From positions 32,178,001 to 32,242,000 of the forward strand of contig OZ024752.1 of the NCBI GenBank assembly GCA_964016885.1: 64,000 nt of DNA. Reading direction: 5' to 3'. The first letter of the stretch is position 1, and each line of letters begins with the position of its first letter. Below are positions 3,345 to 57,164 of the stretch, piece by piece. Both the position numbers and the translations under genes were made by a program. Under the pieces are notes generated by a model. The model had not been told where the DNA came from. It saw only the letters and a program-made list of their open reading frames with translations, and did not search any database. This DNA is from Eledone cirrhosa. Lineage: Eukaryota.

Positions 3345-3542
3345 ACGAAGGAAATGTGGCAAGGAACCAGGTGGACCATAACGCACAAAAGTACTCAATA
3401 CTTAGGGTAGTAGAGTGGGTAATAGGAACAAGTAGGACCCCGACGGCTGAGCTCAAGCCGTTTCGACGGCTAATTCCCGACGGCTAATTCCAGAATTAGC
3501 CGTCGAAACGGCTTGAGCTCAGCCGTCGGGGTCCTACTCGTT

Positions 3543-3546
<4 letters not shown>
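3345..3546 (-). mobile_element. Penelope-like pLTR remnant, family 'GUC' (half-hammerhead with snap-back); other copies at 12618-12820, 19430-19580, 26303-26445, 53266-53457, 61422-61635
   Basis: Conserved GAAACGGC..GCCGTC^GGGGTC followed by the tail ATTACCCACTCTACTACCCTAAGTATTGAGTAC...CCACA; flanked by (TA)n on both sides. Confidence 0.65.
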
Positions 3547-3577
<31 letters not shown>

Positions 3578-4213
3578 AGAGATATACTTTAACTTTAATT
3601 ATATCTCATAAAATAATACAACTGGTTTTTCCACATTATACATATTGTTAGCACCCCAAACACTTAAATTGGGTTTATATTTTAATATAACCTAATGTTT
3701 TTTGAGTGAGATGGTTACCAGTTAGAGTTTAGCTTTAAACTATCTCTGTTATTGTATTAAATATATATATATATATATATATAATTATAAATTTGGATAA
3801 ATTTTGTCTGACTATTCTTCAATCTTTTTCTCTTTAGTCTGTAGAAAAGCAGATAAATAGTCATTTAAACGGAGCTAAGTTTAAAATGTAACTTTGAAGA
3901 AATAACAGATACATGTTATCGATATTCCTCTATGAGGAACAGACAGATGAAATTTATCTAGTTTTATATATATTTATATAATATATATAAATATTATATG
4001 TATTTATATTATATTCATACGAAAAGCGCTACCTAAGGTTTCAAGGCCCAATATTGATATCCCCAGAATATAATATATCAGCCCTCATTCCTGATTGAAC
4101 ACTGATCTCCTTTTTCACACCTACAGATATGTTCTCTCTCTCTCTCTTTCACTCTCTCTCCCCCTCTCTCTCTCTCTCTCTCTCTCTCACATACATATAT
4201 ACACATATCTATA

Positions 4214-4273
4214 TTGGGTCGTCAAGTATGAAATTTGTAGAAATTTGTACAAATTTCATACTTGACGGCCCAA
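4214..4273. mobile_element. Tiny mariner-like MITE (copies at 31909-31978 and 44626-44706)
   Basis: TIR TTGGGTCGTCAAGTATGAAATTTGTA; TA flanks; three dispersed copies of 60-80 bp. Confidence 0.7.
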
Positions 4274-4282
4274 TGTATATAT

Positions 4283-12617: not shown

Positions 12618-12820
12618 AACGAAGGAATTGTGGTAAGGAACCAGATGGACCATAACGCACCAGAGTACTCAATACTTAGGGTAGTAGTGTGGGTAATAGG
12701 AAAAAGTATGACCCCGACGCCAGAGCTCAAGCCCTTTCGGCGGCTATTTCTGGACTTCAGAGTCCATAAATAGCCGTCGAAACTGCTTGAGCTCTGCCGT
12801 CGGGGTCATACTTTTTCCTA
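12618..12820 (-). mobile_element. Family 'GUC' pLTR remnant with fold-back
   Basis: Near-identical to 53266-53457; hairpin 12696-12820; (TA)n flanks. Confidence 0.7.
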
Positions 12821-14418
12821 TATATATATATGCACTCGTGTGTGTGTGTTTACAATTATTTCATAGATAAAGTATAAACTTTAAAAACTGTTGTGTGGGA
12901 GGTTAATGGTATAAACCATGAAGAAAGGAAATTGTGTAAGTATGATTTTGTATGTATGTATGTATGTGTGTGTGTGTGTATGTGTGTGTGTATGTGTGTG
13001 TGTGCATTTAAATGTATGTGTGTGTGTGTTTATTTGTTTGTATGTATTAAAATGTATGCGTTTGTCTGTTTGTGTGTGTGTGTATGTGTACATGTGAATG
13101 TTTCTGTCTGTATTAAAATGTATGCGTTTGTCTGTTTGTTTGTATGTGTATGTGTCTGTCTGTTTCTGTGTATTAAAATGTATGCGTTTGTCTGTTTGTG
13201 TGTATATGTGTACATGTGAGTGTGTCTGTCTATTTCTGTGTATTTAAATGTGTGTGTGATGTGCTGTATTTTAAGACCGTCTATTTCACAGGTTGTTATA
13301 TAAGATTGTCTCTTTAACAATATTACTTTGGTTCTCTTGTAAGATCATTTTATTTGACAACAGTGTATCAATTGTTTTATGTCTCCTATGTATCTTTTCT
13401 AGACAAACAAGACATCTCGTCTTATCGTGCCAATCCGATTAAGCTGCCATTTCTAAGCAGCATTTATTCGAAAATATCACGCAAATGTCAATGTCAATGT
13501 CAAGATTTTCCAAATTAAAATATTTTATTAATTGTAGAACATGACATTTAAATATGTTTTTGTTGCTGTTTTTTTTTTGTTTTGTTTTTTGTATTTTTTT
13601 TATTTTTATTTCAAATCAGCAAAAATCTGGAATTTTAATTTCAATTATAATTCGTTAGATTTTTATATATTTTCAATATTTGAACAAAATTAAACTTAGA
13701 TGTACAACAATTGTTGGAGAAACATTGTAAAATCGATAAATTTGACTCAAAATCTTAGTTTGACTCAAGTTATTGGATTCTAGTTTTGTGAATTCAAACT
13801 TGTTACCGAAGTTTCATTGTTTAAGAATACAATATGTATCTTTGCGCGCTTCAGATTACCTACTGGACAGAAACTAGTTCCTGGTGCTTTCGTAATATTT
13901 CTTATAGATCATGCTTGTCTGGATAAGATACAGACAATCCTGTTTCATCTCAGCCCCAGAATATCAGCTTCGAGAAAATTTTGATGAAGATGCTTCATAT
14001 CCAGCAGGAATATCTGTGACTCGAGTGTTATTCTAACTTTTTATAAAAACTTAATCATTTTATTTCATATTTTCCTTTAAGGACTGTACTTAGAAAGTTG
14101 AAGTTGTTTGTTTGCTTTCCTTATGGTTTCGAAAAGAGTGTGAACGTGGCAATAATCTTGAATTATATGAGCTTGATGGCTTTCCATTATCAGATTTGAG
14201 GTTTGAAAATGGTTACGATGCATACCAATTATACATACCACTAATATCTTGTTGCTTATTCTAGTACATTATATATTTGGCTGTCTATAACCATGCTACG
14301 GATCTTCTGCTAAAATTACTGTTCATGTATGTATATAATATATATAACGTTTCACTTCAATCAGATGTATGGAAATCATGGTTATAATACCTCATGTATT
14401 TTTCTTATATATTTACAG

Positions 14419-17157: not shown

Positions 17158-17610
17158 TTAAGGGTTCGATTTGCAGTTGTAGTGCGAAAATTTTTCTTTA
17201 AGTCTATGGGTGCAATAAATTGATATTTCGATTTTAATGTTGAGTAACTTTTTCTTCGAACTCAAAATGTGAAACAGTTCAAGGTCACACAACCGACAGC
17301 TTCTCATACCACTCCGATATGCAGGCGCGTTCGATAGTTTCTTCCACTTCAGGGTGTATTGATGGTTACTTTCCCTCAGTTGCCAGGTCTTGTTCGCAAG
17401 GGTAGTTACATAACGATGCTGGGAATGTTTCATTGCGTAACGGTGTGTATATCAACGAGCTTTAAATGTATTCCAGTCGCTCCGATGTAATACCCCTTCT
17501 GGTTGTCTGATTCGACCGTGTATTGGTAAACCAGGTTAGACTGCATACATTCATTATGCAATGGACAGGTTTCAGGTAGTAGGCAGTTACAATTCTTGTC
17601 ATGGGCAACT
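17158..17610 (-). pseudogene. Penelope-like element C-terminal GIY-YIG endonuclease, decayed
   Basis: Translation CNCLLPETCPLHNECMQSNLVYQYTV..GYYIGATG/(frameshift)FKAR*YTH..TTLANKTWQLRE..LKWK..APAY..CRLCDLE..LLN..E..CTH; one frameshift and one stop. Confidence 0.85.
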
Positions 17611-17807
17611 TTGGCATAATTACTTTGGCTTACCTCTGTTTTCTCTTTTATTATTTATACTCCAAGATTGAACGTGATTTACTAACCACATTGTTGCAAA
17701 CTTGTGGAGTTACCCCTAACCGTACGTTGGAAACCGTCCAAGAAACTGGGTTACCGTCCAAGAAACTTGAAATTGGATTACAATAAGCAATTTTCTGCTT
17801 CCCTAAC

Positions 17808-19817: not shown

Positions 19818-20213
19818 TATAAACGTTTGTATATGTATAATAAAGCCAAAACAATACAGGTATGGACATAGAATAAAGAATGCAAATGCAAAAGATATTG
19901 TTGACAATTAGTCTTTTACCTTAGATTTATTTAATTGTCCTTAATTTTCGAGATATCTCTCCTTCGGAGGGAAGTAAAGTTGTCAAACCAGTGTTCTAAA
20001 TAGCTTGCCAAATGACTTGGCAAGCTATTTAGAACACTGGTTTAACCGCTTTACTTCCCTCCGAAGGAGAGATATTATTTCGAAAATTAAGGACACTTAA
20101 ATAAATCTAAGGTAAAAGACTAATCGTCAACAATATCTTTTGCATTTGCATTCTTTATTCTATGTCCATACCTGCATTGTTTTGGCTTTATTATACATAT
20201 ACAAACGTTTATA
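19818..20213. repeat. ~195-bp-arm palindrome with 5-nt loop
   Basis: Arms 19818-20011 and 20017-20213; degenerate HHR-like core CCGAAGG..GAAAATTA in the right arm. Confidence 0.9.
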
Positions 20214-21100: not shown

Positions 21101-21752
21101 TAGTTACAAAAAAAAAAAGAAAAAAATGATAAGAGAGAATCATTGAGTTTCATTCGTTTTCCAATATTACTGTACTTCGATTTGCGTAGGAAAATATAAT
21201 TGATCTAAAACTAATGCTAATATAATTTGATCTGAAATAAAATATAACAAACGAAAAATCACATAGAAGCTAGTACTAACATATTTAATGCAGTAGGGGA
21301 TTAAAAAGCTAACAAAAGATAATTAAATGGCTAAGCAGAAACTATAGTTTTCAATGATTAGTATTTGTCTATCACTCGTACTTAACAGAATAATTGAAAC
21401 AATATTAGCCATGGACAAATATTGTCTTTTTTTCATATTATTTCTGTTTTATTTTCCTGACTACATAATTATGTCTATTATTTTTTTTTTTTTTTTTGCT
21501 CACTGTATTAAATTTATTAATACAAATCGGGCTTTTTATTTATTAGTAGCTATCTGGTCACAAACGGTACCACGAAACCACTAGAGTCCGGTGGTTTGAG
21601 AGTTCGGGTCCAATTTCTGGCACTTCGGGCAAATGTCTTAGCTTCGGGGTCGTTAAAATAAAGTTTCAGTCACGCACTGGCATCGATTTGATCGACTTTC
21701 CCTTCCCCCAAATTTTCTGGCCTTGTACCTAAATCAGAAATTATTATATATT

Positions 21753-21822
<70 letters not shown>

Positions 21823-22114
21823 TCAGTTCAAAGAATCATTACATAAAATATATACAGTAATTTCCTCTCCCAATCAGTATAAATCAACCATACAAAAAAT
21901 CATTTAAACGAGGCTATAAGTTTAAAATGTACTTATGAAGAAACAATAGACAAATGATACAGCCTCCTCTCCGCGACGTATAGCTACATGATATTTATCT
22001 AATATTTCTACTAGCCTGTAGAAATTGACTAGACATACAGTTAACTACACGTAATTAGGTACAAAATCGAAGTTAGAAAAAAAAATGTACATACACTCTA
22101 TCAAAGTCCTCATA

Positions 22115-22200
22115 ATCTCTACCACCCGGCGGTTTCGTTCCATTTTTTGGATATATCCGGTCTTGGATAAATCCACGAGGCTCGGAACTCATCAGGAGAT
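22115..22200 (-). ncRNA. Canonical type I hammerhead ribozyme
   Basis: atctc-CTGATGA-gttcc(42-nt loop)ggaac-GAAA-ccgc cgg gtgg-TA-gagat; all three helices paired, G-C closing pair of helix II present, GUA cleavage triplet. Confidence 0.85.
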
Positions 22201-22280
22201 ACCTCAATTGGACAAAGATTTTTCTACAATGATCCCCGCCAGAAATGAATTCAAAATGGCTAAGAACCATCACGTGGCCA

Positions 22281-23307
22281 GTGTAGTTAACTATATGTCT
22301 AGTCAATTTCTACAGGTGTGTAGTTAACTATATGTCTAGTCAATTTCTACAGGCGTGTAGTTAACTATATGTCTAGTCAATTTCTACAGGCGTGTAGTTA
22401 ACTATATGCCTAGTCAATTTCTACAGGTGTGTAGTTAACTATATGTCTAGTCAATTTCTACAGGTGTGTAGTTAACTATATGTGTAGTCAATTTCTACAG
22501 GTGTGTAGTTAACTATATGTCTAGTCAATTTCTACAGGTGTGTAGTTAACTATATGTCTAGTCAATTTCTACAGGCGTGTAGTTAACTATATGTCTAGTC
22601 AATTTCTACAGGCGTGTAGTTAACTATATGCCTAGTCAATTTCTACAGGTGTGTAGTTAACTATATGTCTAGTCAATTTCTACAGGTGTGTAGTTAACTA
22701 TATGTGTAGTCAATTTCTACAGGTGTGTAGTTAACTATATGTCTAGTCAATTTCTACAGGCGTGTAGTTAACTATATGTCTAGTCAATTTCTACAGGTGT
22801 GTAGTTAACTATATGTGTAGTCAATTTCTACAGGCGTGTAGTTAACTATATGCCTAGTCAATTTCTACAGGTGTGTAGTTAACTATATGTCTAGTCAATT
22901 TCTACAGGTGTGTAGTTAACTATATGTGTAGTCAATTTCTACAGGTGTGTAGTTAACTATATGCCTAGTCAATTTCTACAGGTTTGTAGTTAACTATATG
23001 TCTAGTCAATTTCTACAGGTGTGTAGTTAACTATATGTCTAATCAATTTCTACAGGTGTGTAGTTAACTATATGCCTAGTCAATTTCCACAGGTGTGTGG
23101 TTAACTATATGTCTAGTCAATTTCTACAGGTGTGTAGTTAACTATATGTCTAGTCAATTTCTACAGGTGTGTGGTTAACTATATGTCTAGTCAATTTCTA
23201 CAGGTGTGTAGTTAACTATATGTCTAGTCAATTTCTACAGGTGTGTAGTTAACTATATGTCTAGTCAATTTCTACAGGTGTGTAGTTAACTATGTCTAGT
23301 CAATTTT
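22281..23307. repeat. 37-bp tandem array, ~27 copies, with one inverted copy at 22014-22050
   Basis: Unit GTGTAGTTAACTATATGTCTAGTCAATTTCTACAGGY; 22014-22050 is its reverse complement with 1 mismatch. Confidence 0.95.
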
Positions 23308-23435
23308 CTGTTTTTCTCGTTGCTGATGTTAACCTGTCTGTCTGTGTGTTGTTTTTGTTCTCGCATTGTCCCCATTTTCTTGGGCCCTTGTGGCCAATAA
23401 AAGAAATCATCAACATCAGTATTATGTTTGTTGAG

Positions 23436-23630
23436 GGGCGGTGAATTGGCAGTATCGGTAGAGAATCGGACGCCATGCTTTGCAGCATAGTTACGTCCCT
23501 TTACGATCTGAGTTAGAACATTCCCGCCGAGGTTAACTTTGCCTTTCATCCTTACGGGGGTCGATAAAATAAAGTACCAGTAATGTACTGGGTAATTGCT
23601 GGCCTTGTGCCAAAAGTAGAAACAATTATT
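23436..23630 (+). mobile_element. SINE family A
   Basis: Consensus match; similar copies at 25075-25262, 26051-26215, 28672-29057, 36409-36627, 38775-38920. Confidence 0.85.
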
Positions 23631-23804
23631 ATTTTTGTTGTTATTGTTGCTGTTGTTGTTGTTATTATTTTGCTTCGTTGTTGATATTTTCTTTGAAAAA
23701 AATATCTCTTGACATCAAACGGCAAATATATTAACACCACGTCAGATTAATATGAATATCGAGTAGTATATATACACACACACACTCTCACACACACACA
23801 CACT

Positions 23805-23861
<57 letters not shown>

Positions 23862-23926
23862 CACACACACACACATATATATATATATATTATATATACA
23901 CACACACATATATATATATATATTAT

Positions 23927-23982
<56 letters not shown>

Positions 23983-24032
23983 CACATATACACACACATA
24001 TATATATATATTATATATACACACACATATAT

Positions 24033-24081
<49 letters not shown>

Positions 24082-24211
24082 CAGATACTCTAAAAAATAT
24101 ATACACAAAGTTTGTGTATTCTAATAAATATTGCCTGTACAGGTAATCAAAGTGGATACATTTTTGAGGGACACTATATATATACATATGTAAATACATG
24201 TACACACACGT

Positions 24212-24317
<106 letters not shown>

Positions 24318-24417
24318 TTATTAAAATAACCGATTAAAGTTTAAGCAAAGAATCGCTGCTTTCACCCTTAACTTATCGAGCCCTCTTTGGATTTTAGTCT
24401 TCAATTTTATTATTATT

Positions 24418-24478
<61 letters not shown>

Positions 24479-25599
24479 TAGTTATTTTTCTTGTTAGTTT
24501 TCTATTTAGTTTTTTCAATTATCTATTAATACGAAATCAATAGCAAGATATTTTTGTTGCTATTCACTGATTGAAATTTCCATCTAGTGAGAATTTATTT
24601 TTAATGATGTATAAACATATCCAAGTATTGAAAATATCAGCTATGAGCAGTATATTGTATATTTTATTGCTTCATCAGATATATGATTTTCTGGCAGGAA
24701 TACCTGATAGAGAAATTTAATTCTCTCACCATCCATCGTGTAGGAAAATATTGATTTATGAATCAACAAAGCACAACGGTTTCCGCTTGTTCGGATAAAT
24801 TATGTGCTATTTAGATGGGTGAACACATCGAACTAAAGGAAGAAAATAACACCTTTAGTGTTGATAAAAATTATGTCTTCTTTCCTTTAAACTACATTAA
24901 GTAGCCGTTTGTTAATCGGTGGTAGAAAACTAATATCTGTCGTTTACCTAAAACCGTGCTTGTAATGAAATTGACCGATTATTTGACAAAAAAAAAAGAG
25001 CAGTGTTTGTCGGTAAGTATCAATGTTGTAGCAAATAAATTAATATATTTTGAACAAATATTATATTTGGAATGTAGGTGGATTGGCAGTATCGATAGAG
25101 GGTCGAACGCCATGCTTTCTAGCATAGTTACATCCCTTTATGATCCGAGTTCAAATCCCGCCGAGGTTAACTTTGCCTTTCATCCTTACAGGGTCGATAA
25201 AATAAAGTACCAGTAATGCACTGGATAATTGCTGGCCTTGTGCCACAGGTACAAACAATTATATTTGGAATGTATAAAAGTACACAAGTTCAGATTATAC
25301 GTTACGAGTGTGTATGTATATGTGTGTATATTCGTGTGTGTGTATATATTGTGTGTGTATATATGAGTGTGTTTTTTTTATATATATGTGGATATGTGTG
25401 TGTATGTATGTGTATTTCATATATATATATGTGTGTGTATATAATATGTGTGTATAGAAGTGTGTAATATATATATATATATATGTGTGTGTGTATATAT
25501 ATATGCGTGTATATGTGAGTGTGTTTTTCATATATATGTGTGTGTATTTCATATATTTGTGTGCATATATGTGTGTGTATGTATCAGTGTGTATTCCAT

Positions 25600-25636
<37 letters not shown>

Positions 25637-26240
25637 ATTTGTATGTATTTCATATATTTGTGTATATATATGTGTGTGTGTGTATTTGTGTGTATTTCAC
25701 ATATATATATGAGTGCGTGTTTTGTATGTGTGTATTGATATATTTCTGTGTGTATATGTGCGTGTGTGTATATATATGTGTGTGTATTGTATATATATAT
25801 ATATATATGTATTGATATATTTGTGTGTATATATTTGTGTGTATATATATGTGTGTATATATATATGTGTATTGATATATTTCTGTGTGTATATGTGTGT
25901 GTGTATATATATGAGTGTGCATTGTATATATATGTGTATTGATATATTTGTGTGTATATATGTTTGTGTATATCACAGTCTTCCTGGTATTTTCTTTCAC
26001 CTCAATAGGTAATTACTGTTGGATACTCCACCAACACCACAACGTTGTTAGGGCGGTGGATTGGTAGTATCGCAGAGAGTTACGGCCCTTTACGTTCTGA
26101 GTTCAAATTCCACCTAGGTTAACTTTGCCTTTCATCCTTACGCAGTCGATAAAATAAAGTACCAGTAATACACTGGTTGGGATAATTGCTGGCCTTGTGC
26201 TCAAAAGTAAAAACAGTCATGGTAATTAATATACATGTGT

Positions 26241-26291
<51 letters not shown>

Positions 26292-26831
26292 CATATATAT
26301 ATTTGCGAACGGATCTAGCTGTCGAAACGGCCGGAGCTCAGCCGTCGGGGTCCTCACTCTTTTCCTATTACCCACTCTACTACCCTAAGTATCGAGTACT
26401 CTGGTGCATTATGGTCCACCTGGTTTCTTACCACACTTTCTTTATTATATATATATATGTGTGTGTGTTTTTTTATCATTTATTTTGTTTTGACCTGTTT
26501 AGCTTGATTTACTTTTTGGCTTATGTGGCTGATGCTTTCTTGACCACTATTTCAGTTTTGTATGGCCTCTTAACATATTGTTTAGCTCTGGGTTTTTTAA
26601 CTATGGAGTGCTTGCCAGCATTATTTCTGATTTTTGCGTTTCGTTTCGCCTTTTCTACCCGCTGAAATGCGATTCTCGGTAAATCTATACTTATATACAT
26701 ATATATATCGCCAATAAAATGTATACACACTTCAGGAAAAGAAAAATCTGTATAAATATTTATTAATAAGCTAAATATTTATACAAGGTTTTCTTTTCCT
26801 TGAGTGTCTATACATTTTGGGGGGTGAACGC

Positions 26832-26863
<32 letters not shown>

Positions 26864-26946
26864 CGTTATTCCGGGTTGAATCGGAGGTAACCACAGTAAG
26901 TAAGGTACTCAATACATTGCAGAGTATAAAAGTTTTAATATAGATG

Positions 26947-26997
26947 AGATTCTACAGGACTAGAACTGTTTCATTCTTTAGAAATCATCAGGAATCT
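26947..26997 (-). ncRNA. Type I hammerhead ribozyme (mirror copy)
   Basis: Reverse complement of 27336-27386. Confidence 0.75.
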
Positions 26998-27335
26998 GGG
27001 TATCAAAAAATAAATATGGTATTTATAGGTCTCTTCAGGTGGTAGGAGAGGGTGGGGAGTGGGATGGGTGTAGGTCATTGGTTGATAGAAAAGGGAATTC
27101 ATTAAAAGCTAATTCTTCAAAGCTATAGTTTATATTTAGAGTAACAAAGGCAGAAAGAATTCTATAAACAAGTTAATATAAACTAAATATAAACTAAATA
27201 TAAACTATAGCTTTGAAGAATTAGCTTTTAATGAATTCCCTATTCTATCAACCAATGACCTCTACCCATCCCACTCCCCACCCTCTCCTACCACCTGAAG
27301 AGACCTATAAATACCATATTTATTTTTTGATACCC

Positions 27336-27386
27336 AGATTCCTGATGATTTCTAAAGAATGAAACAGTTCTAGTCCTGTAGAATCT
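27336..27386 (+). ncRNA. Type I hammerhead ribozyme
   Basis: agattc-CTGATGA-tttc taaa gaat-GAAA-cag ttctagtc ctg-TA-gaatct; GUA site, predicted cut after 27380. Confidence 0.75.
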
Positions 27387-27401
27387 CATCTATATTAAAA
27401 C

Positions 27402-27480
<79 letters not shown>

Positions 27481-28331: not shown

Positions 28332-30124
28332 TCTTTTCCTGCTTCTTCATAATTAATCCCTTTGTCATCACATGACTTCAGGTCTTCCTGTCATGGGGTT
28401 ATAACTTCCCTTTCGAACGACCGTGAAGCTGAAGCCACCCTCGAGAGGGGATTGTCCTCACAGTAGGTTATGCTTTCTGTTCTATGTGGGTACATTTTTC
28501 TTATGGAGGTGGAGAGTGGAGATCCTTTTTCCCTTTTTTTTACTCATTCCTCTGCCATTGATGTTTATCTGAGAAAGGTAATGAACCCCAATTCATCGTC
28601 GCAACACAATGCGATGAAACTGCTGGTTATAGCATAAGGAATGAGTCCTATGGGTCGTATTATTTTTGCTTTGGCGCATAGTTACGGCCCTTGCCATTCT
28701 GAGTTCAAATCCCATCGAGGTTAACTTTGCCTTTCATCCTTACGGGGTCGATAAAATAAAGTACCCTTAATGCACTGGATAATTGCTGGCCTTGTGCCAA
28801 AAGTAGAAACAACTATTTTTGCGGTGGATTGGAGGTATCGGTAGAGCGTCGGACAGCATGCTTTGCTGCATAGAGTTACGTCCTTTTATGTTCTGAGTTC
28901 AGGTACCGCCGAGGTTAGCTTCGCCTTTCATCCCTACGAGGTCGATAAAATCGACCAGTAACGTTCTGGGGTCCAGTAACGTACTGGGGTTGATTTAATC
29001 GACTTTCCCATCCCCCAAAGAATTGTTGGCCTTGTGCCTAAATCAGAAACCATTATCTCTATGGCGGGTTTTGAGAACGTCTCACTTTTAGAATCAATTA
29101 AAACTCATAGTTGACGATAGCCTAGTCTTCTGAACTCATTTGAATATGGAGAAATGGTGTGGTGATGGCTGCCACTGGATTTATTCTAATGCGGATCACG
29201 TGTCAGGGAAATGTAGAATACTAATAGCAATTATGCATAGATTCTCATCTTATGAGCCCGAAGAGAATTGTCCCTAGATAACTGCAAAAAATAATGACTA
29301 GAATAGAATACGAATTTCCAAAAAATCTAATTTATATTTGTTTTATATATTTAGAATTACTTTAAATTAACAAATATGAAATTGTCAGGTTTGGAAATGT
29401 TATCTCTTTTATATATTAATAATGATGACAGACTCTCCGGAGTTTCCAAAAAGGGATAGAAATTGAAGATGTCACAGATATGTGTGACGAAAGAAGTTTA
29501 AGAAACTATATTTATATTTATTTTTTAATTGTGAGTCAATCAATGATAAACATTAATTGCCAGCTAAATTATTTATAGAAATATAAAATTATTCTGGAGC
29601 AAACACCAAACCAAACCAAACAGTGAGTGTGTTTTACTATTTTTTTTTTTTTGTGGTGTTGTTGGGGGCAATATTAGGACAACATAACCCTCCTCAAATA
29701 TAACTATAAAAACATAATATACAGGAGTATTATTTAAATTAAATGATCGCTTCTTTGATTTTGCTCTGCTTTGTTTTGAAAATGTAAATTTCATATTTTA
29801 TCTGTCACAATCACTATTTTGAAATAATTATATTTTTCTAACTTTTGTCTGTTACCATATTTTGTCATTCTTGTTAGAAGAACCCCCCCCCCCTTTTTTT
29901 TTTCATTTGTGTAGAAAAAAAGTAATTGTTCCTTCTGAATGAATATCAACCATTATTACTGACATTTTGAATAAAGAAATATTATAAGGAAATAAAGAAA
30001 TATTATTACTGAAATTTTGTCAATAACACAATTATCTAAAACCAAATTTCCTTATGGTTATTTCTTGCTTTTTTCTTTCTTTCTTTAATATTTTATTTAT
30101 TCATTTATTTATTTATTTTCTCAG

Positions 30125-30555
30125 GTGTGAAATATCTCGATGAATGTCCCAAGGAGCCGAAAATACCAATCTACCTTTTAGTCGGCGGATCATTCGGTGC
30201 CCTCAAGTTAGTACTCGTACTTTGGCGTCAGGTGAAGTTTCACCGTTACGAATTTGACGACCATTTCAGTGATACTGAGAAATTATTTTCAGCATCACAT
30301 GTCACACAATTGGCTCTGACAGTTTTTTTAGCCATTTGGTTTGGCTTCGGTAACTATTGGCTTTATTCTATTTGGAAACCTCATTTCGAGGCTCCTCTCC
30401 ACGAACCTCGCAACTGGTGCTCAGAAACAGTGTTTCGTTTTACATTTTGGCAGCTACTATCTTGTCATGTTTTGGTTTGCTGCACTATAATTCTGACATT
30501 TGTTTTACTCATAACCTACAGATGCTATAAAATTTGTAAAATGGAGAAAAGCTAA
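30125..30555 (+). CDS. TMEM272: TMEM272-like transmembrane protein, terminal coding exon
   Basis: Polypyrimidine tract + tctcAG|GT; encodes VKYLDECPKEPKIPIYLLVGGSFGALK..FLAIWFGFGNYWLYSIWKP..PRNWCSETVF.., the TMEM272 family motifs; stop TAA 30553-30555 followed by AATAAA. Confidence 0.9.
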
Positions 30556-38388: not shown

Positions 38389-39118
38389 ATAGTGTGTGTG
38401 CGTGTGTATTACAAGTCGAAGCTGAAGCATATAGACAATATGCCCCACCTCCTTCCACTGTAAAGTGTTCGTGGAGGTGTCTTGACAAAAAAGCACCCAG
38501 CCCACACTGTAAGGTGGTCGTGTAGGCGCCACGGTAAAAAAAAAAACCTCCAGCACTCACTGTAAATGAGGTTGGTGTTGGGAAGGGCATCCAGCTGTAG
38601 AAATCAAGCCAAAATCGGTTCCCGTATGAGCAAGACATGGTCCCCCAAACTGGCATTGTCCACAACAGGACAACCCGTCTAACCCATGCTATCGTGTAGA
38701 ATGGACGTAAAACGGTAATGAATATATGTATGTATATATGAAGAGAGTCAGAGGGGAAAGATATATATTGTGGCCATTGGCAGTATCGGTAGAGGCGTCG
38801 GACGTCATGCTTTGACGCATGGAGTTACGGCCCTTTCCATTCTGAGTTCAAATCCCACCGAGGTTAACTTTGCCTTTCATCCTTACGGGGTCGATAAAAT
38901 AAAGTACCAGTAATGTACTCGCATAGCAAAACCACAAACCCTCCATCTCAATTCTACTTTTGAAAAGCACAAGAACTGTGAAACCGGTAAAGGAAACAAA
39001 TAAATATTCTTAAAAAGACTCCAGCTGTATTTTCGATTTCATCTTTTTTCCTTATACTTTCACTCGTTTTTTTTTTTTTTCATTTTGAAAAAAAAAAACC
39101 CCTCATTTTCTCATATAT

Positions 39119-39698
39119 ATATATTGTTATACTTTGGGAGGGTCATGTTGCCAATAAGAAACACACGCACCAGTTACTTTCACTTCAATTTATTATTATA
39201 AATTTAGGAATTTATAAATTTCCGGTTGGTTGGTTGGTTGGTTCCACAACCAGATGGTTGTTTATTTATATATTGTCAAAGTTCTTTCGTCACACATTCT
39301 GTGACCTCTTCAGTGACTGGGGATTCTTTTCTTTTTTTTTGTTGTGCCTCTCTTTTGTTCTGTCCTACGCCATCTTGTTTCTGTGTGTGTCACACACAGA
39401 AACAAGATGGCGTAGGACAGAACAAAGAAAAGAATCCCCAGTCACAGAAGAGGTCACAGAATGTGTGACGAAAGAACTTTGACAATATATAAATAAACAA
39501 CCATCTGGTTGTGGAACCAACCAACCAACCGGAAATTTATAAATTCCTAAATTTATAAATTTATTATAATAAATTGAAGTGAAAGGAACTGGTGCGTGTG
39601 TTTCTTATTGGCAACATGACCCTCCCAAGGTATAACAATAATATCGGTTTCAACACACGTTTTCAGATAAAGAATCTTGCTAAACAAATTCAGAAACG
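39119..39698. mobile_element. Penelope-like 3' end with ~260-bp fold-back
   Basis: Palindrome centred near 39390; 3' tail repeated on - at 49128-49222; (TA)n flanks. Confidence 0.75.
39275..39317 (-). ncRNA. Minimal type I hammerhead ribozyme
   Basis: gtca-CTGAAGA-ggtcaca gaatg tgtgac-GAAA-gaac-TT-tgac; the mirror copy at 39441-39483 has a mutated core, CAGAAGA. Confidence 0.7.
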
Positions 39699-39944
39699 AT
39701 ATATATATATATATATATATATATAAGAGAGAGAGATCAGTGACAACCACTTTGTGCTAGCTATGATCAGCAAACGGTAATTTGATATATCATATCTTTC
39801 TCTCACACTCAATGTTGAGAAGATATTCATCCAGTGTTTATATAGCTACTATCTACAGTTGGCTCAGTTGTTAAGGGCGTTGGACTTACTGACTATAATG
39901 TGTAAATAAAGAAACATCTAGTTACCTATTTAAATCTCTCTATA

Positions 39945-42900
39945 GCTGTCTCTCTCTGTATATATCTGTTTAACTCTCTCTCTCTCTACCTATCTGTCTG
40001 TCTCTGTATATATCTGTTTAACTCTCTCTCTACCTATCTGCCTGTCTCTGTATATATCTGTTTAACTCTCTCTCTCTACCTATCTGCCTGTCTCTGTATA
40101 TATCTGTTTAACTCTCTCTCTACCTATCTGCCTGTCTCTGTATATATCTGTTTAACTCTCTCTCTACCTCTCTGCCTGTCTCTGTATATATCTGTTTAAC
40201 TCTCTCTCTACCTATCTGTCTGTCTCTGTATATATCTGTTTAACTCTCTCTCTACCTATCTGTCTGTCTCTGTATATATCTATTTAACTCTCTCTCTACC
40301 TATCTGTCTGTCTCTGTATATATCTGTTTAACTCTCTCTCTACCTATCTGCCTGTCTCTGTATATATCTGTTTAACTCTCTCTCTACCTATCTGCCTGTC
40401 TCTGTATATATCTGTTTAACTCTCTCTCTACCTATCTGCCTGTCTCTGTATATATCTGTTTAACTCTCTCTCTACCTATCTGCCTGTCTCTGTATATATC
40501 TGTTTAACTCTCTCTCTCTACCTATCTGCCTGTCTCTGTATATATCTGTTTAACTCTCTCTCTACCTATCTGCCTGTCTCTGTATATATCTGTTTAACTC
40601 TCTCTCTACCTCTCTGTCTGTCTCTGTATATATCTGTTTAACTCTCTCTCTACCTATCTGCCTGTCTCTGTATATATCTGTTTAACTCTCTCTCTCTACC
40701 TATGTGTCTGTCTATGTATATATCTGTTTAACTCTCTCTCTCTACCTATCTGTCTGTCTCTGTATATATCTGTTTAACTCTCTCTCTCTCTCTCTCTACC
40801 TCTCTGCCTGTCTCTGTATATATCTGTTTAACTCTCTCTCTACCTATCTGCCTGTCTCTGTATATATCTGTTTAACTCTCTCTCTACCTATCTGCCTGTC
40901 TCTGTATATATCTGTTTAACTCTCTCTCTCTACCTCTCTGTCTGTCTATGTATATATCTGTTTAACTCTCTCTCTACCTATCTGTCTGTCTCTGTATATA
41001 TCTGTTTAACTCTCTCTCTCTACCTCTCTCTGTCTATGTATATTTCTGTTTAACTCTCTCTCTCTCTCTACCTATCTGTCTGTCTCTGTATATATCTGTT
41101 TAACTCTCTCTCTACCTATCTGCCTGTCTCTGTATATATCTGTTTAACTCTCTCTCTCTACCTTTCTGTCTATGTATATATCTGTTTAACTCTCTCTCTA
41201 CCTATCTGTCTGTCTCTGTATATATCTGTTTAACTCTCTCTCTCTCTACCTCTCTGTCTATCTATGTATATATCTGTTTAACTCTCTCTCTACCTCTCTG
41301 TCTGTCTCTGTATATATCTGTTTAACTTTCTCTCTACCTATCTGTCTGTCTCTGTATATATCTGTTTAACTCTCTCTCTACCTCTCTCTCTGTCTCTGTA
41401 TATATCTGTTTAACTCTCTCTCTACCTATCTGTCTGTCTCTGTATATATCTGTTTAACTCTCTCTCTACCTCTCTGCCTGTCTCTGTATATATCTGTTTA
41501 ACTCTCTCTCTACCTCTCTGCCTGTCTCTGTATATATCTGTTTAACTCTCTCTCTACCTATCTGTCTGTCTCTGTATATATCTGTTTAACTCTCTCTCTA
41601 CCTATCTGCCTGTCTCTGTATATATCTGTTTAACTCTCTCTCTACCTCTCTGTCTGTCTCTGTATATATCTATTTAACTCTCTCTCTCTACCTATCTGCC
41701 TGTCTCTGTATATATCTGTTTAACTCTCTCTCTCTCTACCTATCTGCCTGTCTCTGTATATATCTGTTTAACTCTCTCTCTCTACCTCTCTGCCTGTCTC
41801 TGTATATATCTGTTTAACTCTCTCTCTACCTCTCTGCCTGTCTCTGTATATATCTGTTTAACTCTCTCTCTACCTATCTGCCTGTCTCTGTATATATCTG
41901 TTTAACTCTCTCTCTACCTATCTGCCTGTCTCTGTATATATCTGTTTAACTCTCTCTCTACCTCTCTGCCTGTCTCTGTATATATCTGTTTAACTCTCTC
42001 TCTACCTATCTGCCTGTCTCTGTATATATCTGTTTAACTCTCTCTCTACCTATCTGCCTGTCTCTGTATATATCTGTTTAACTCTCTCTCTCTCTACCTC
42101 TCTGTCTGTCAATGTATATATCTGTTTAACTCTCTCTCTACCTATCTGTCTGTCTCTGTATATTTCTGTTTAACTCTCTCTCTCTACCTATCTGTCTGTC
42201 TCTGTATATATCTGTTTAACTCTCTCTCTACCTATCTGCCTGTCTCTGTATATATCTGTTTAACTCTCTCTCTACCTCTCTGCCTGTCTCTGTATATATC
42301 TGTTTAACTCTCTCTCTACCTATCTGCCTGTCTCTGTATATATCTGTTTAACTCTCTCTCTACCTCTCTGTCTGTCTCTGTATATATCTGTTTAACTCTC
42401 TCTCTACCTATCTCTCTGTCTCCGTATATATCTGTTTAACTCTCTCTCTATCTCTCTGCCTGTCTCTGTATATATCTGTTTAACTCTCTCTCTACCTCTC
42501 TGGCTGTCTCTGTATATATCTGTTTAACTCTCTCTCTACCTATCTGTCTGTCTCTGTATATATCTGTTTAACTCTCTCTCTCTACCTATCTGTCTCTCTG
42601 TATATATCTGTTTAACTCTCTCTCTCTACCTATCTGTCTCTGTATATATCTGTTTAACTCTCTCTCTACCTATCTGTCTGTCTATGTATATATCTGTTTA
42701 ACTCTCTCTCTCTCTCTACCTATCTGCCTGTCTCTGTATATATCTGTTTAACTCTCTCTCTACCTATCTGTCTGTCTCTGTATATATCTGTTTAACTCTC
42801 TCTCTCTACCTATCTGCCTGTCTCTGTATATATCTGTTTAACTCTCTCTCTCTACCTATCTGTCTGTCTCTGTATATATCTGTTTAACTCTCTCTCTACC

Positions 42901-43030
42901 TATCTGCCTGTCTCTGTATATATCTGTTTAACTCTCTCTCTCTCTCTACCTCTCTGTCTGTCTCTGTATATATGTTTAACTCTCTCTCTACCTCTCTGCC
43001 TGTCTCTGTATATAATCTCTCTATCTACCT
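39945..43030. repeat. ~44-bp pyrimidine-rich minisatellite, roughly 65-70 copies
   Basis: Unit (CT)5-ACCTATCTGCCTGTCTCTGTATATATCTGTTTAA with variable CT number. Confidence 0.95.
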
Positions 43031-43104: not shown

Positions 43105-44430
43105 AGAAAGACAGATAGGATAGATAAATAGATGGATCGATAGATGGATCGATAGATCGATAGATGGATCAGATAATAGATGGATCTATAGGTCGGTAGG
43201 TTAGATAATCGATGGATTGATAGATAGATATGTTTCTTTTATTTGCCACCAGGGCATCAAAAGTGGGACAAGTACAAAGGGGGGAGTTTACAAAACAAGG
43301 CGTCCTCAATAAGGAGGAGTCAATAACAATCTATAAAAATAAAATAAAATATAACAAAAAATAAAATTTATAACAAAATCCTCAGGAGCACAGAGAGGGG
43401 GTGCTCCCTCGTTCCTTCCTCCTTTCCACCTATAGGCTTATGTAAAGAGAAGGCCCATTCACACGGGCCATTCACTCGGGCCATTCACACGGGCCATTCT
43501 CGATTGATAGATAGATCGATAGATAGAAAGGTTAGATAATCGATGGATCGATAGATAGATGGGTTAGATAATCGATGGATCGATAGATAGATGGGTTAGA
43601 TAATCGATGGATCGGTAGGTAGATAGAAAGGTTAGATAATCGATGGATCGGTAGGTAGATAGAAAGGTTAGATAATCGATGGATCGGTAGGTAGATAGAT
43701 GGGTTAGATAATCGATGGATCGGTAGGTAGATAGATGGGTTAGATAATCGATGGATCGGTAGGTAGATAGAAAGGTTAGATAATCGATGGATCGGTAGGT
43801 AGATAGATGGGTTAGATAATCGATGGATCGGTAGGTAGATAGATGGGTTAGATAATCGATGGATCGGTAGGTAGATAGAAAGGTTAGATAATCGATGGAT
43901 CGGTAGGTAGATAGATGGGTTAGATAATCGATGGATCGGTAGGTAGATAGAAAGGTTAGATAATTGATGGATTGGTAGGTAGATAGGTAGGTTAGATGAT
44001 CGATGGATCGGTAGATAGGTAGGTAGGTTAGATGATCGATGGATCGATAGATAGATAGGTAGGTTAGATGATCGATGGATCGATAGATAGATAGGTAGGT
44101 TAGATGATCGATGGATCGATAGATAGATAGGTAGGTTAGATAATCGATGGATAGATAGATAGGTAGGTTAGATGATCGATGGATAGGTAGGTAGGTTAAA
44201 TGATCGATGGATCGATAGATAGATAGGTAGGTTAGATGATCGATGGATATGTAGGTAGGTTAGATGATCGATGGATCGATAGATAGATAGGTAGGTTAGA
44301 TAATCGATGGATAGATAGATAGGTAGGTTAAATGATCGATGGATCGATAGATAGATAGGTAGGTTAGATGATCGATAGATAGATAGGTAGGTTAGATGAT
44401 CGATGGATCGATAGATAGATAGATAGGTTG
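43105..44430. repeat. GATA-derived ~36-bp minisatellite interrupted by an insertion at ~43232-43500
   Basis: Unit GTTAGATAATCGATGGATCGGTAGGTAGATAGATGG; the insertion ends on - strand with GGCAAATAAAAGAAAC (possible LINE 3' end). Confidence 0.85.
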
Positions 44431-44833
44431 ATAAATAGGTAGAACAATATCACTGTGATTTAGTGGATGTAAGTTTGATTATTTGAAGGAAATATAAGAA
44501 AAACTTATTACAATTGATTTTCTGTAGAATGTAACACAATTGCTGGAGTGAGAGTGAGAGTGAGAAGGTTAAGTGACACTTGTCCAATATATTACTGTCG
44601 GATGAAACCTGTCAACTAATAACTAATGGGTCGTCAAATATGAAATTTGTAGAAAAAAAACAGTTGACCATATACCTCACTACAAATTTCATATTTGACG
44701 ACCCAATAATAAGTGAATATCGAACTTCTTAAGTATTCAGCCATATTGCTTCCATATTTGGCCATACTGTTTCTGGGGATAAAGAAAAAACATACAGACA
44801 GATACATAAACAAAATCCCAGGACTTACAAATA

Positions 44834-51631: not shown

Positions 51632-51732
51632 AGAAATACTTCTACGGGACTAGAACTGTTTCATTCGTAAGAAATCATCAGGATTTTTCTGATGATTTCT
51701 TACAAATGAAACAGTTCTACTCCTGTCATTTC
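51632..51732. mobile_element. Back-to-back HHR cores of the 27336 family
   Basis: CTGATGATTTCTTAC.AATGAAACAGTTCTA on both strands, axis near 51685; stem I degraded. Confidence 0.65.
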
Positions 51733-53265: not shown

Positions 53266-53464
53266 CAAAGGAATTGTGGTAAGGAACTAGATGGACCATA
53301 ACGCACCAGAGTACTCAATACTTAGGGTAGTAGAGTGGGAAATAGGAAAAAGTATGACCTCGACGGCAGAGCTCAAGTCGTTTCGACGGCTATTTCAGTC
53401 CAGAAATAGCCGTCGAAACGGCTTGAGCTCTGCCGTCGGGATCATACTTTTTCCTATATATATA

Positions 53465-56018: not shown

Positions 56019-56095
56019 TATATATATATATATATATAAATGGAATAGAATGAAACGAAATTTCATTTCTCACTCTTAGTACGGCACTTACTTAA

Positions 56096-56149
56096 ATGTA
56101 AGTATGTATGTATACGTACATACATATATGTATACAGACGTACAGTAGC

Positions 56150-56208
<59 letters not shown>

Positions 56209-56519
56209 CAGGCACACATATATATATGTACGTATCAGTTTAGCGAACATTTATTATAATGTTCGCTTTGTTCGTTTGTAAACAAACGGACAGCCTGATT
56301 TATGCCGTACAGTGTTAAGGCAACCACGCTGACGATAGCTAACAAGCTTGAAACTAGTACATCGTTCCTGTGTCAGTGTTGAACAAAAAGGTGACGTGGT
56401 TGCCTTAACACTGTACGGCATAAATCAGGCTGTCCGTTTGTTTACAAACGAACAAAGCGAACATTATAATAAATGTTCGCTAAACTGATACGTACATATA
56501 TATATATATATATGTGTGC

Positions 56520-56563
<44 letters not shown>

Positions 56564-56618
56564 GCTACTGTACGTCTGTATACATATATGTATGTACGTA
56601 TACATACATACTTACATA
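56096..56618. repeat. ~230-bp-arm inverted repeat with an HHR-like motif in the loop
   Basis: Arms 56096-56328 and 56395-56618; the loop begins CTGACGA-tagct aaca agctt-GAAA-ctag-TA. Confidence 0.85.
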
Positions 56619-56777
56619 TATATATATATATGTAGATAAATCTAGCAAAATGTACGGTAGTGTCCAATCCGTATGAAGAACTCAATGTAATCCGAATATC
56701 ATGAAAAGAGAAGATGTGTTCAAAAATTTTTTTTTAGATGAAAAATACAGGAAAACAGAGTCAAGATAAATGAATAA

Positions 56778-57130
56778 AAATAATGAATAAAAACAAAGAA
56801 ACAGTTCCTTATATTAAAAAAATTCATCATTTTACGATCGTTTCTAGGATATATGTTTGTGTTGGTATGTATATCATATAGATCTATGTAAAATTTTTAC
56901 AAACTATCAGAGGGAATATACATACCTACACATATATATGCTGTCTTCAGAAATAATTATTTCTGAAGACAGCATATATATGTGTAGGTATGTATATTCC
57001 CTCTGATAGTTTGTAAAAATTTTACATAGATCTATATGATATACATACCAACACAAACATATATCCTAGAAACGATCGTAAAATGAATTTGTTAATATAA
57101 GGAACTGTTTCTTTGTTTTTATTATTTTTA
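56778..57130. repeat. Loopless palindrome, ~175-bp arms
   Basis: Centre GAAATAA|TTATTTC at 56956/56957. Confidence 0.9.
56959..57084 (+). ncRNA. Type I hammerhead ribozyme with ~100-nt helix II (mirror copy 56829-56954 on -)
   Basis: attt-CTGAAGA-[atatatgtgt/acac..catatat; ggtatgtatat/atatacatacc]-GAAA-cgatcg-TA-aaat. Confidence 0.65.

Positions 57131-57164
<34 letters not shown>

Follow-up and report, generated by a model that had tools for sequence, protein, structure and literature searches.

A hammerhead-bearing copy of a many-copy repeat family beside a minisatellite built from its own inverted 37-nt segment

Introduction

How does a hammerhead motif come to lie between a single 37-nt segment and a long tandem array of the reverse complement of that segment? 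The question is raised by a locus in the window analysed here, by which we mean the whole 64,000-nt stretch of DNA, part of an animal genome, presumably octopus-like from its repeat features, in which (TA)n tracts and interspersed repeats abound. The preliminary description of the locus offered two answers, either a TIR-bounded element that carries a ribozyme, or a rod-like retrozyme whose terminal stem had been recopied iteratively by an RT of the Penelope-like element (PLE) type. Here we consider the motif itself, the repeat family in which it lies, the array and its junctions, and the origin that these together suggest. Among the other features of the window is an open frame at 30040-30555 (plus strand) that resembles TMEM272 (Atlas 0.94-0.95) and is probably a real exon.

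The hammerhead motif

The motif at 22115-22200 reads on the minus strand as a type I hammerhead, with the conserved core divided between 22195-22189 and 22136-22133, all three helices present (helices I, II and III of 5, 6 and 5 bp, helix I open), a loop 2 of 40 nt, and cleavage predicted between 22120 and 22119. It had been called the best-formed hammerhead in the window, and this was borne out: it is the sole motif in the window in which every helix has at least 5 bp, and none of 200 block-shuffled windows held such a motif. Two companion claims fared less well. The motif is not the only hammerhead candidate of other than minimal form, given that at a loose threshold (3/3/2) weaker motifs with a 20-47-nt loop 2 are found at five other sites (37630 and 3214 on the plus strand; 18541, 20714 and 14907 on the minus strand). 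Nor does loop 2 appear to form the two small hairpins once assigned to it, which reach only -3.4 to -4.3 kcal/mol, while the predicted fold is a single 10-bp hairpin at -11.9 kcal/mol. Of the weaker motifs, 37630 plus and 18541 minus look like a single family with a hairpin in loop 2.

The Rfam model Hammerhead_1 (RF00163) aligns to 22115-22200 at 12.5 bits (E 5), below its gathering score of 34 bits, and the alignment requires a 38-nt insertion in loop 2; in an Rfam search of the whole window, hammerheads were absent among the 150 of 197 matches listed. The active hammerhead fold differs from the lowest-energy predicted fold, and its predicted share, as computed from secondary structure with tertiary contacts left aside, is 0.08 in 96 nt and 0.004 at lengths of 116 and 201 nt, falling to between 4e-5 and 1e-4 in 230-464 nt. 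Within its natural context, poor folding is predicted for the hammerhead of this copy. The 230-nt core alone folds like its shuffles (z -0.73), and addition of the arms lowers z to -9.15 owing to the inverted repeat alone. The proposed rod-like retrozyme finds no support in this value for the core, nor in the 37-nt tandem unit, from which the hammerhead core is missing.

An ATG within the hammerhead core starts a 40-codon frame, for which no homologue was found. Longer frames over the core, of 90 aa on the plus strand and 78 aa on the minus strand, had no Pfam match, and no match was returned for the 78-aa frame in a word search for longer proteins or for the 90-aa frame in a HMMER search of 1.84 billion proteins. 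A viral scan for hammerhead ends gave 0 matches, as did a metagenome scan with a 20-mer from the arm. For an 18-mer taken from the core, metagenomes gave 95 loci, and these were dismissed as chance, the longest match to the element being 30 nt.

The repeat family and its ends

The distribution of the sequence was followed in read data from relatives of the source species, of which the best run shares 0.17 of 30 words, a share too small to count as evidence on its own; none of the runs listed was of RNA. Four of the eight runs listed (X1, X4, X5 and X6) were compared with 21820-22330 at 80% likeness, which gave 1546 contigs from X1 and 1523 reads from X6, covering 28/29 bins, and 4 from X5 and 1 from X4; the mapping details given here are drawn from the 13 pieces listed out of 1566, together with 18 of the 242 loose ends and 40 of the 175 differences. 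Depth starts at 21820, and over 21820-22013, to the left of the 37-mer, it is as great as over the core, so that the family extends about 195 nt leftward beyond the 37-mer, which is therefore not a terminus. Among the 13 of 1566 pieces listed, three bridge 22014 and one bridges 22050 with at least 31 nt on each side, and none crosses 22283.

On the other side the copies in relatives depart into other sequence at two points. In X6, where the depth just before is about 243, 109 reads have loose ends behind 22278 and 90 behind 22283, and in X1 the latter point has 19 contigs of this kind. Over 22324-22330, the final bin, coverage of which depends on the tandem junction, depth is 0 in 4/4 runs of relatives. 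The depth over 22288-22323 mirrors that over 22018-22053 in X1, where 28 contigs fit two places, and is best explained by family copies whose internal 37-mer was assigned to the arm that it matches better. One diverged subfamily retains the first half of the hammerhead core and differs where helix II starts, giving a loose end before 22203 (20 contigs, 193 reads).

At its left the copy adjoins a (TA)n tract at 21745-21818 (TRF, 37 copies), which would be both the insertion target and the 3' end of the family. The preliminary description had this hammerhead as not embedded in (TA)n, whereas the repeat that bears it terminates at this tract. A second copy of the family 3' end, at about 3788-3970 and about 68% alike (shuffles as good, 0/1000), likewise abuts (TA)n, at 3786, and two loose ends among the X5 contigs carry TA-rich sequence before 21825/21832; the (TA)n end of the family is placed from these two window copies and two contigs. 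The hammerhead lies about 300 nt from that end, and its strand reads towards it.

The hammerhead therefore sits in a many-copy interspersed family that ends at (TA)n, and the 37-mer is internal to that family. The copy here, 21820-22283 on the minus strand, is 5'-truncated, being at least 464 nt long and continuing upstream in relatives, and likely represents the pseudo-LTR end of a PLE, or else of a non-autonomous derivative. No ORF for an RT or a GIY-YIG endonuclease was found in the truncated copy, the open frames of its core matching nothing, and a window-wide search for two 20-nt family continuations, with up to 4 errors, returned AT-rich or unrelated matches only. The best-covered part of the family includes 22250-22280, which lies upstream of the hammerhead and holds motifs that we take to be E-box-like and YY1-like, perhaps the promoter of the element. 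We also considered an intron-like GT..AG span at 22094-22016 (minus strand) that ends in the 37-mer, and rejected it given that the donor G is changed in most of the relatives' reads (524/629, X1).

Because in relatives the 37-mer is internal, copies depart at 22278/22283, and there is no second unit, the TIR-bounded element once suggested is not supported; a check for a TSD likewise found none, only shared words of 4-5 nt that are part of the array unit itself. The inversion and the array were unseen in the runs of relatives, and the two together likely arose through a single event at this locus. It could still be argued, from arms that are identical at 35-36/37 positions, that a young species-specific subfamily bounded by the 37-bp inverted repeat moves as an inverted repeat-hammerhead-inverted repeat unit, one arm of which was expanded here. 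However, the copy is continuous on its left with a further 195 nt of family sequence, its junction never appears in relatives, and no TSD accompanies it, and we consider such a subfamily highly improbable.

A different view of the family would make it a dispersed non-LTR retrozyme-type monomer, non-coding and spread through circular RNA, with the arm and array still specific to the locus. Animal retrozymes are described as typically carrying canonical full-helix type I hammerheads (PMC7229834), there are reports of solo monomers with a relation to pLTRs (bioRxiv 10.64898/2026.07.22.740005), and no homology was found for the frames of the core. A single hammerhead is present, though, no head-to-tail family joint occurs among the 6 joints listed, and a copy of at least 464 nt that extends upstream and has a fixed (TA)n end is poorly suited to such a monomer, so that we judge this view of the family quite improbable.

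Structure of the tandem array

The array at 22281-23306 (plus strand) is a minisatellite of 27 full units and one last unit that is both partial and diverged, the unit being the reverse complement of 22014-22050; TRF gives a period of 37, 27.8 copies and 96% matches. A 37-bp inverted repeat with one arm amplified about 27-fold, as originally described, is thus present, but the unit and the repeat do not agree exactly as had been stated. The left arm, 22014-22050 (plus strand), which both the sequence and the contigs of a relative place as an internal segment of the family and which would be the template of the inverted arm, matches the reverse complement of the array consensus at 35/37 positions, and at 36/37 the full units with a final C, which number 6/27 and one of which has one extra change.

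The C/T variant at the end of the unit falls in a CpG, with C as the template state, and would fit decay of methyl-C. At the position matching 22038 the array has retained the family base and the left arm has not (3617/4040 depth in run X1), and the left arm therefore likely changed after the inverted copy was made. An 8-bp hairpin at 22004-22025 overlaps the left end of the 37-mer.

Variation within the array bears directly on how it grew. Its 20 variant cells represent just 7 variants over the 27 full units (independent errors as few, 0/100000), and units 7-12 are an exact repeat of units 1-6 (shuffles as good, 16/20000). Given shared variants and an exact six-unit block, the pattern points to expansion at the level of DNA, with descent through block duplication, and not to 27 rounds of copying off one template. 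The idea that all 27 units were recopied iteratively is accordingly hard to maintain. In its fullest form, telomerase-like addition of every repeat from a rod-like retrozyme RNA, that idea would explain why the unit equals the inverted segment in both length and phase, and PLE RTs are described as related to telomerase (PMC8557442); set against the shared variants, the duplicated block and a core that is not rod-like, it is largely refuted, and we give it almost no credence.

The recurring variants and the block duplication also argue that the array is real. That the tandem junction is missing in relatives would be in keeping with an assembly artefact, but seven recurring variants in non-random order and a diverged last unit would be unusual for a collapsed or looped assembly, and misassembly of the exact 222-nt block, while possible, would alter the copy number alone; an artefact thus seems to us barely conceivable. 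The window has further minisatellites at 1506-2022 (41 nt), 39935-43014 (44 nt) and 43506-44434 (36 nt), the last two of which flank a retroelement-like 3' end at about 43230-43300.

Junctions of the array and its right neighbour

Where the family copy ends and the inverted arm begins, the two overlap by 3 nt, GTG, at 22281-22283 (plus strand), a fold-back junction located from the sequence and from the loose ends at 22278/22283. This GTG can pair with the CAC at 22048-22050 of the same strand, and the head-to-head piece at the break of the family copy is 37 nt only. Each array unit ends at the base that matches 22014 and restarts at 22050. A direct 5/7 match, between 22008-22014 and 22045-22051, has a spacing of exactly 37 nt; 1.9% of the 7-nt windows of the element reach such a match at that spacing, and it is disrupted by the majority bases of the relative at 22011, 22046, 22048 and 22051. 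Of this match a single base takes part in the observed tandem junction, a base that is in the template arm and absent from the start of the inverted arm, and since the junction turns on that one matching base, re-priming here would be at best weakly indicated.

To the right of the array, about 105 nt at 23307-23412 (plus strand) align to 43215-43340 on the minus strand (shuffles as good, 0/1000) and resemble the 3' end of a retroelement, with an AATAAA signal and a short tail; presumably the neighbour is LINE-like. The remainder of the inverted arm was not found in the next 3 kb (23306-26300), where 42/200 shuffles were as good. Two other accounts of the right side were rejected, a longer inverted arm suggested by a 115-nt BLAST extension at 70%, which past the array is no better than shuffles (474/500), and a Helitron/DINE-type reading, for which the right side has only a run of 2-3 copies of GTCT in the wrong order.

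These boundaries make it reasonable to consider a reading with the same family and geometry in which the inversion came later, through a host polymerase acting at a break by snap-back end joining or replication template switching; as part of this reading, the break would have joined the hammerhead element to the end of the neighbouring retroelement with deletion of the intervening sequence. Two 5'-broken elements do meet at the array, with neither (TA)n nor the rest of the arm on the right side, and the abrupt right-hand join is accounted for. Snap-back synthesis from short inverted primer repeats is described as yielding inverted insertions (PMC5728401), and 2/3 of the other reiterated turns in the window (3422-3547 and 4205-4282, see below) are in elements without a hammerhead core. 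On the other hand, the primer repeats in the available text of PMC5728401 lie up to about 30 bp from the break and the loop here is 230 nt, and head-to-head pairs are routine in PLEs. We regard later inversion by a host polymerase as possible, if unlikely.

Fold-backs elsewhere in the window

Fold-back inversions are very common in the window (19 listed), and two head-to-head pairs carry minimal hammerheads, 26931-27402, with 209-nt arms that are 99% alike and a hammerhead in each, and 51644-51726, with 38-nt arms. In the first of these, the inverted arm opens with an 11-mer that occurs in three copies at 27175-27207, and the 3-nt match that explains the 11-nt period lies in the template arm alone. 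Further long fold-backs, in addition to 51644-51726, are at 19818-20213, 39117-39644, 56093-56620 and 56766-57139.

Of the inverted structures selected from a self-comparison of the window, 3/19 had an exact tandem duplication of 10-14 nt within 70 nt of their centre, namely 26931-27402 and the hairpin-like inverted structures 3422-3547 (14 nt) and 4205-4282 (10 nt). The background is 2/313 tiles when long arrays and fold-back centres are left out, or 10/339 when only microsatellite tiles are left out, and the enrichment of duplications at turns has a P of 0.0002 to 0.017, for a test that was devised after one case had been seen and in which some of the 19 structures are paralogues. Look-alikes of the two hairpin-like structures at 12696-12821, 53342-53457 and 44624-44708 are without the duplication.

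A stretch of 14 nt is common to the pair 26931-27402 and the sequence that directly follows a broken, two-piece frame at 17158-17654 (minus strand), which is GIY-YIG-like, with a weak Atlas match of 0.94 (recognition 2268, mark 2300), and from its sequence looks like the endonuclease end of a PLE. Pfam, NCBIfam and word searches gave no match for this frame.

A bolder reading of these reiterated turns is that PLE RTs stutter on fold-back, such that a short stretch is copied, realigned and added again in the manner of telomerase before synthesis runs on, thereby seeding minisatellites. We consider this reading, in which the focal locus (37 nt) and 26931-27402 (11 nt, three copies) would be footprints of such repeat addition, improbable; among the papers listed for reiteration at retrotransposon fold-back junctions, none on PLEs describes it. 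Were the stutter reading true, the window would hold genomic traces of repeat addition by the closest retrotransposon relatives of telomerase, and should reiteration at turns hold genome-wide and be tied to PLE ends, it would offer a testable handle both on the formation of inverted junctions and on repeat addition by the RT.

Proposed origin

The best reading of the locus, in our view about evenly poised between right and wrong, is a truncated Penelope-like end whose cDNA was folded back by the RT of the element, followed by growth of a minisatellite seeded in this way. The element would insert 3' end first at (TA)n, and its cDNA would therefore be the plus strand, running from 21820 to 22283, so that a fold-back at the end of this cDNA gives exactly the head-to-head arm. 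The GTG at the cDNA end would pair with CAC at 22048-22050 and prime that arm, most likely by means of the RT of the element and during insertion, and after 37 nt synthesis would slip back to 22050 and make an at least partial second copy. Fold-back copying with re-priming may thus have provided the seed of the array, one full and one partial copy, from which turnover by slippage or unequal exchange would have taken the minisatellite from about 1.8 to 27.8 copies. At 23307 the junction with the unrelated 3' end would date from that time or result from a later deletion. The role of the hammerhead in this scheme would be to process the RNA of the element.

Several steps have precedent. PLE insertions are described (PMC8557442) as targeting (TA)n, as having hammerheads close to the 3' end, and often as having an inverted 5'-truncated copy beside the 5' end, head-to-head inversions have been interpreted as self-priming (PMC3846280), and the origin of minisatellites from TEs, seeded at short flanking repeats, is a known route (PMC6947457), by which, on this analogy, the later growth of the array likely proceeded. 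Several observations speak against the best reading, in that no RT or endonuclease is linked to the family, the arm does not reach back to (TA)n as the typical PLE inversion does, the 5-bp helix III and 40-nt loop 2 are unlike most animal PLE hammerheads, the re-priming junction depends on one matching base, and the predicted share of the active fold is small. The part given to a PLE-type RT in the preliminary description can accordingly be kept in reduced form, with a tie to Penelope-like elements that is likely and a seed perhaps made by fold-back re-priming, but with the 27 units as a whole removed from its account.

Taken as best explained, the locus is an ordinary, damaged copy of a hammerhead-bearing element together with a TE-derived minisatellite. 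The hammerhead motif is real, its family probably undescribed, and the fold-back and minisatellite probably specific to the locus; among the papers listed, none on cephalopod hammerhead families was found by title or by the start of the abstract. For a PLE-type end in an animal, the hammerhead of this family is unusually complete.

Comparison with known systems

TIR and foldback non-autonomous DNA transposons can have tandem repeats in their arms, and the locus resembles them in having an inverted repeat and a tandem array in one arm. It differs in that the repeat is internal to a family, is absent from the other copies, and has no TSD; among relatives, to which this comparison is confined, the 37-mer is internal and copies diverge at 22278/22283.

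The snap-back insertions of synthesis-dependent end joining are alike in that copying of nearby sequence starts from a short inverted match, with an inverted repeat at the junction as the result (PMC5728401), and differ in scale, the 230-nt loop and 37-nt copy here being longer than the cases in the available text of that paper. For the array, TE-derived minisatellites are comparable in that they too consist of a short internal piece of a TE bounded by a short, imperfect direct match, expanded locally and with variants shared among units (PMC6947457, in the text available). At the focal locus, in contrast, the expanded piece lies in an inverted copy and not in place.

Animal non-LTR retrozymes, as portrayed in the accessible parts of PMC7229834 and bioRxiv 10.64898/2026.07.22.740005, share with the family a canonical type I hammerhead, a many-copy non-coding repeat and an invertebrate-like genome. 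They part from it over tandem monomers. The tandem unit here is without the hammerhead core, the ribozyme is single, no tandem of monomer length was seen, and no head-to-tail joint occurs among the 6 listed.

A close comparison is with EN+ Penelope-like elements (Neptune, Hydra and Penelope/Poseidon), in which a type I hammerhead is reported near the (TA)n-anchored end (PMC8557442, PMC3846280, PMC4209133), and in which 5' truncation and a head-to-head inverted piece at the 5' break are also described. The focal copy stands apart in that no RT or endonuclease was found to be linked to it, that all helices of its hammerhead are full and loop 2 is 40 nt long, and that its inverted piece is 37 nt, stops short of the 3' end, and has been amplified. 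According to PMC4209133, as far as its available text extends, most hammerheads of animal PLEs are minimal and weak in helix III, and canonical or stable hammerheads are reported from plant, fungal and protist PLEs; the 5-bp helix III and 40-nt loop 2 distinguish the focal hammerhead from most of those in animal PLEs. An ORF of an anole PLE is reported to begin at helix II (PMC11167929), to which the ATG in the focal core, with its 40-codon frame, is loosely alike. In its general organisation the family agrees with the EN+ elements, having many interspersed copies, a (TA)n end, and a hammerhead near the 3' end that reads towards it.
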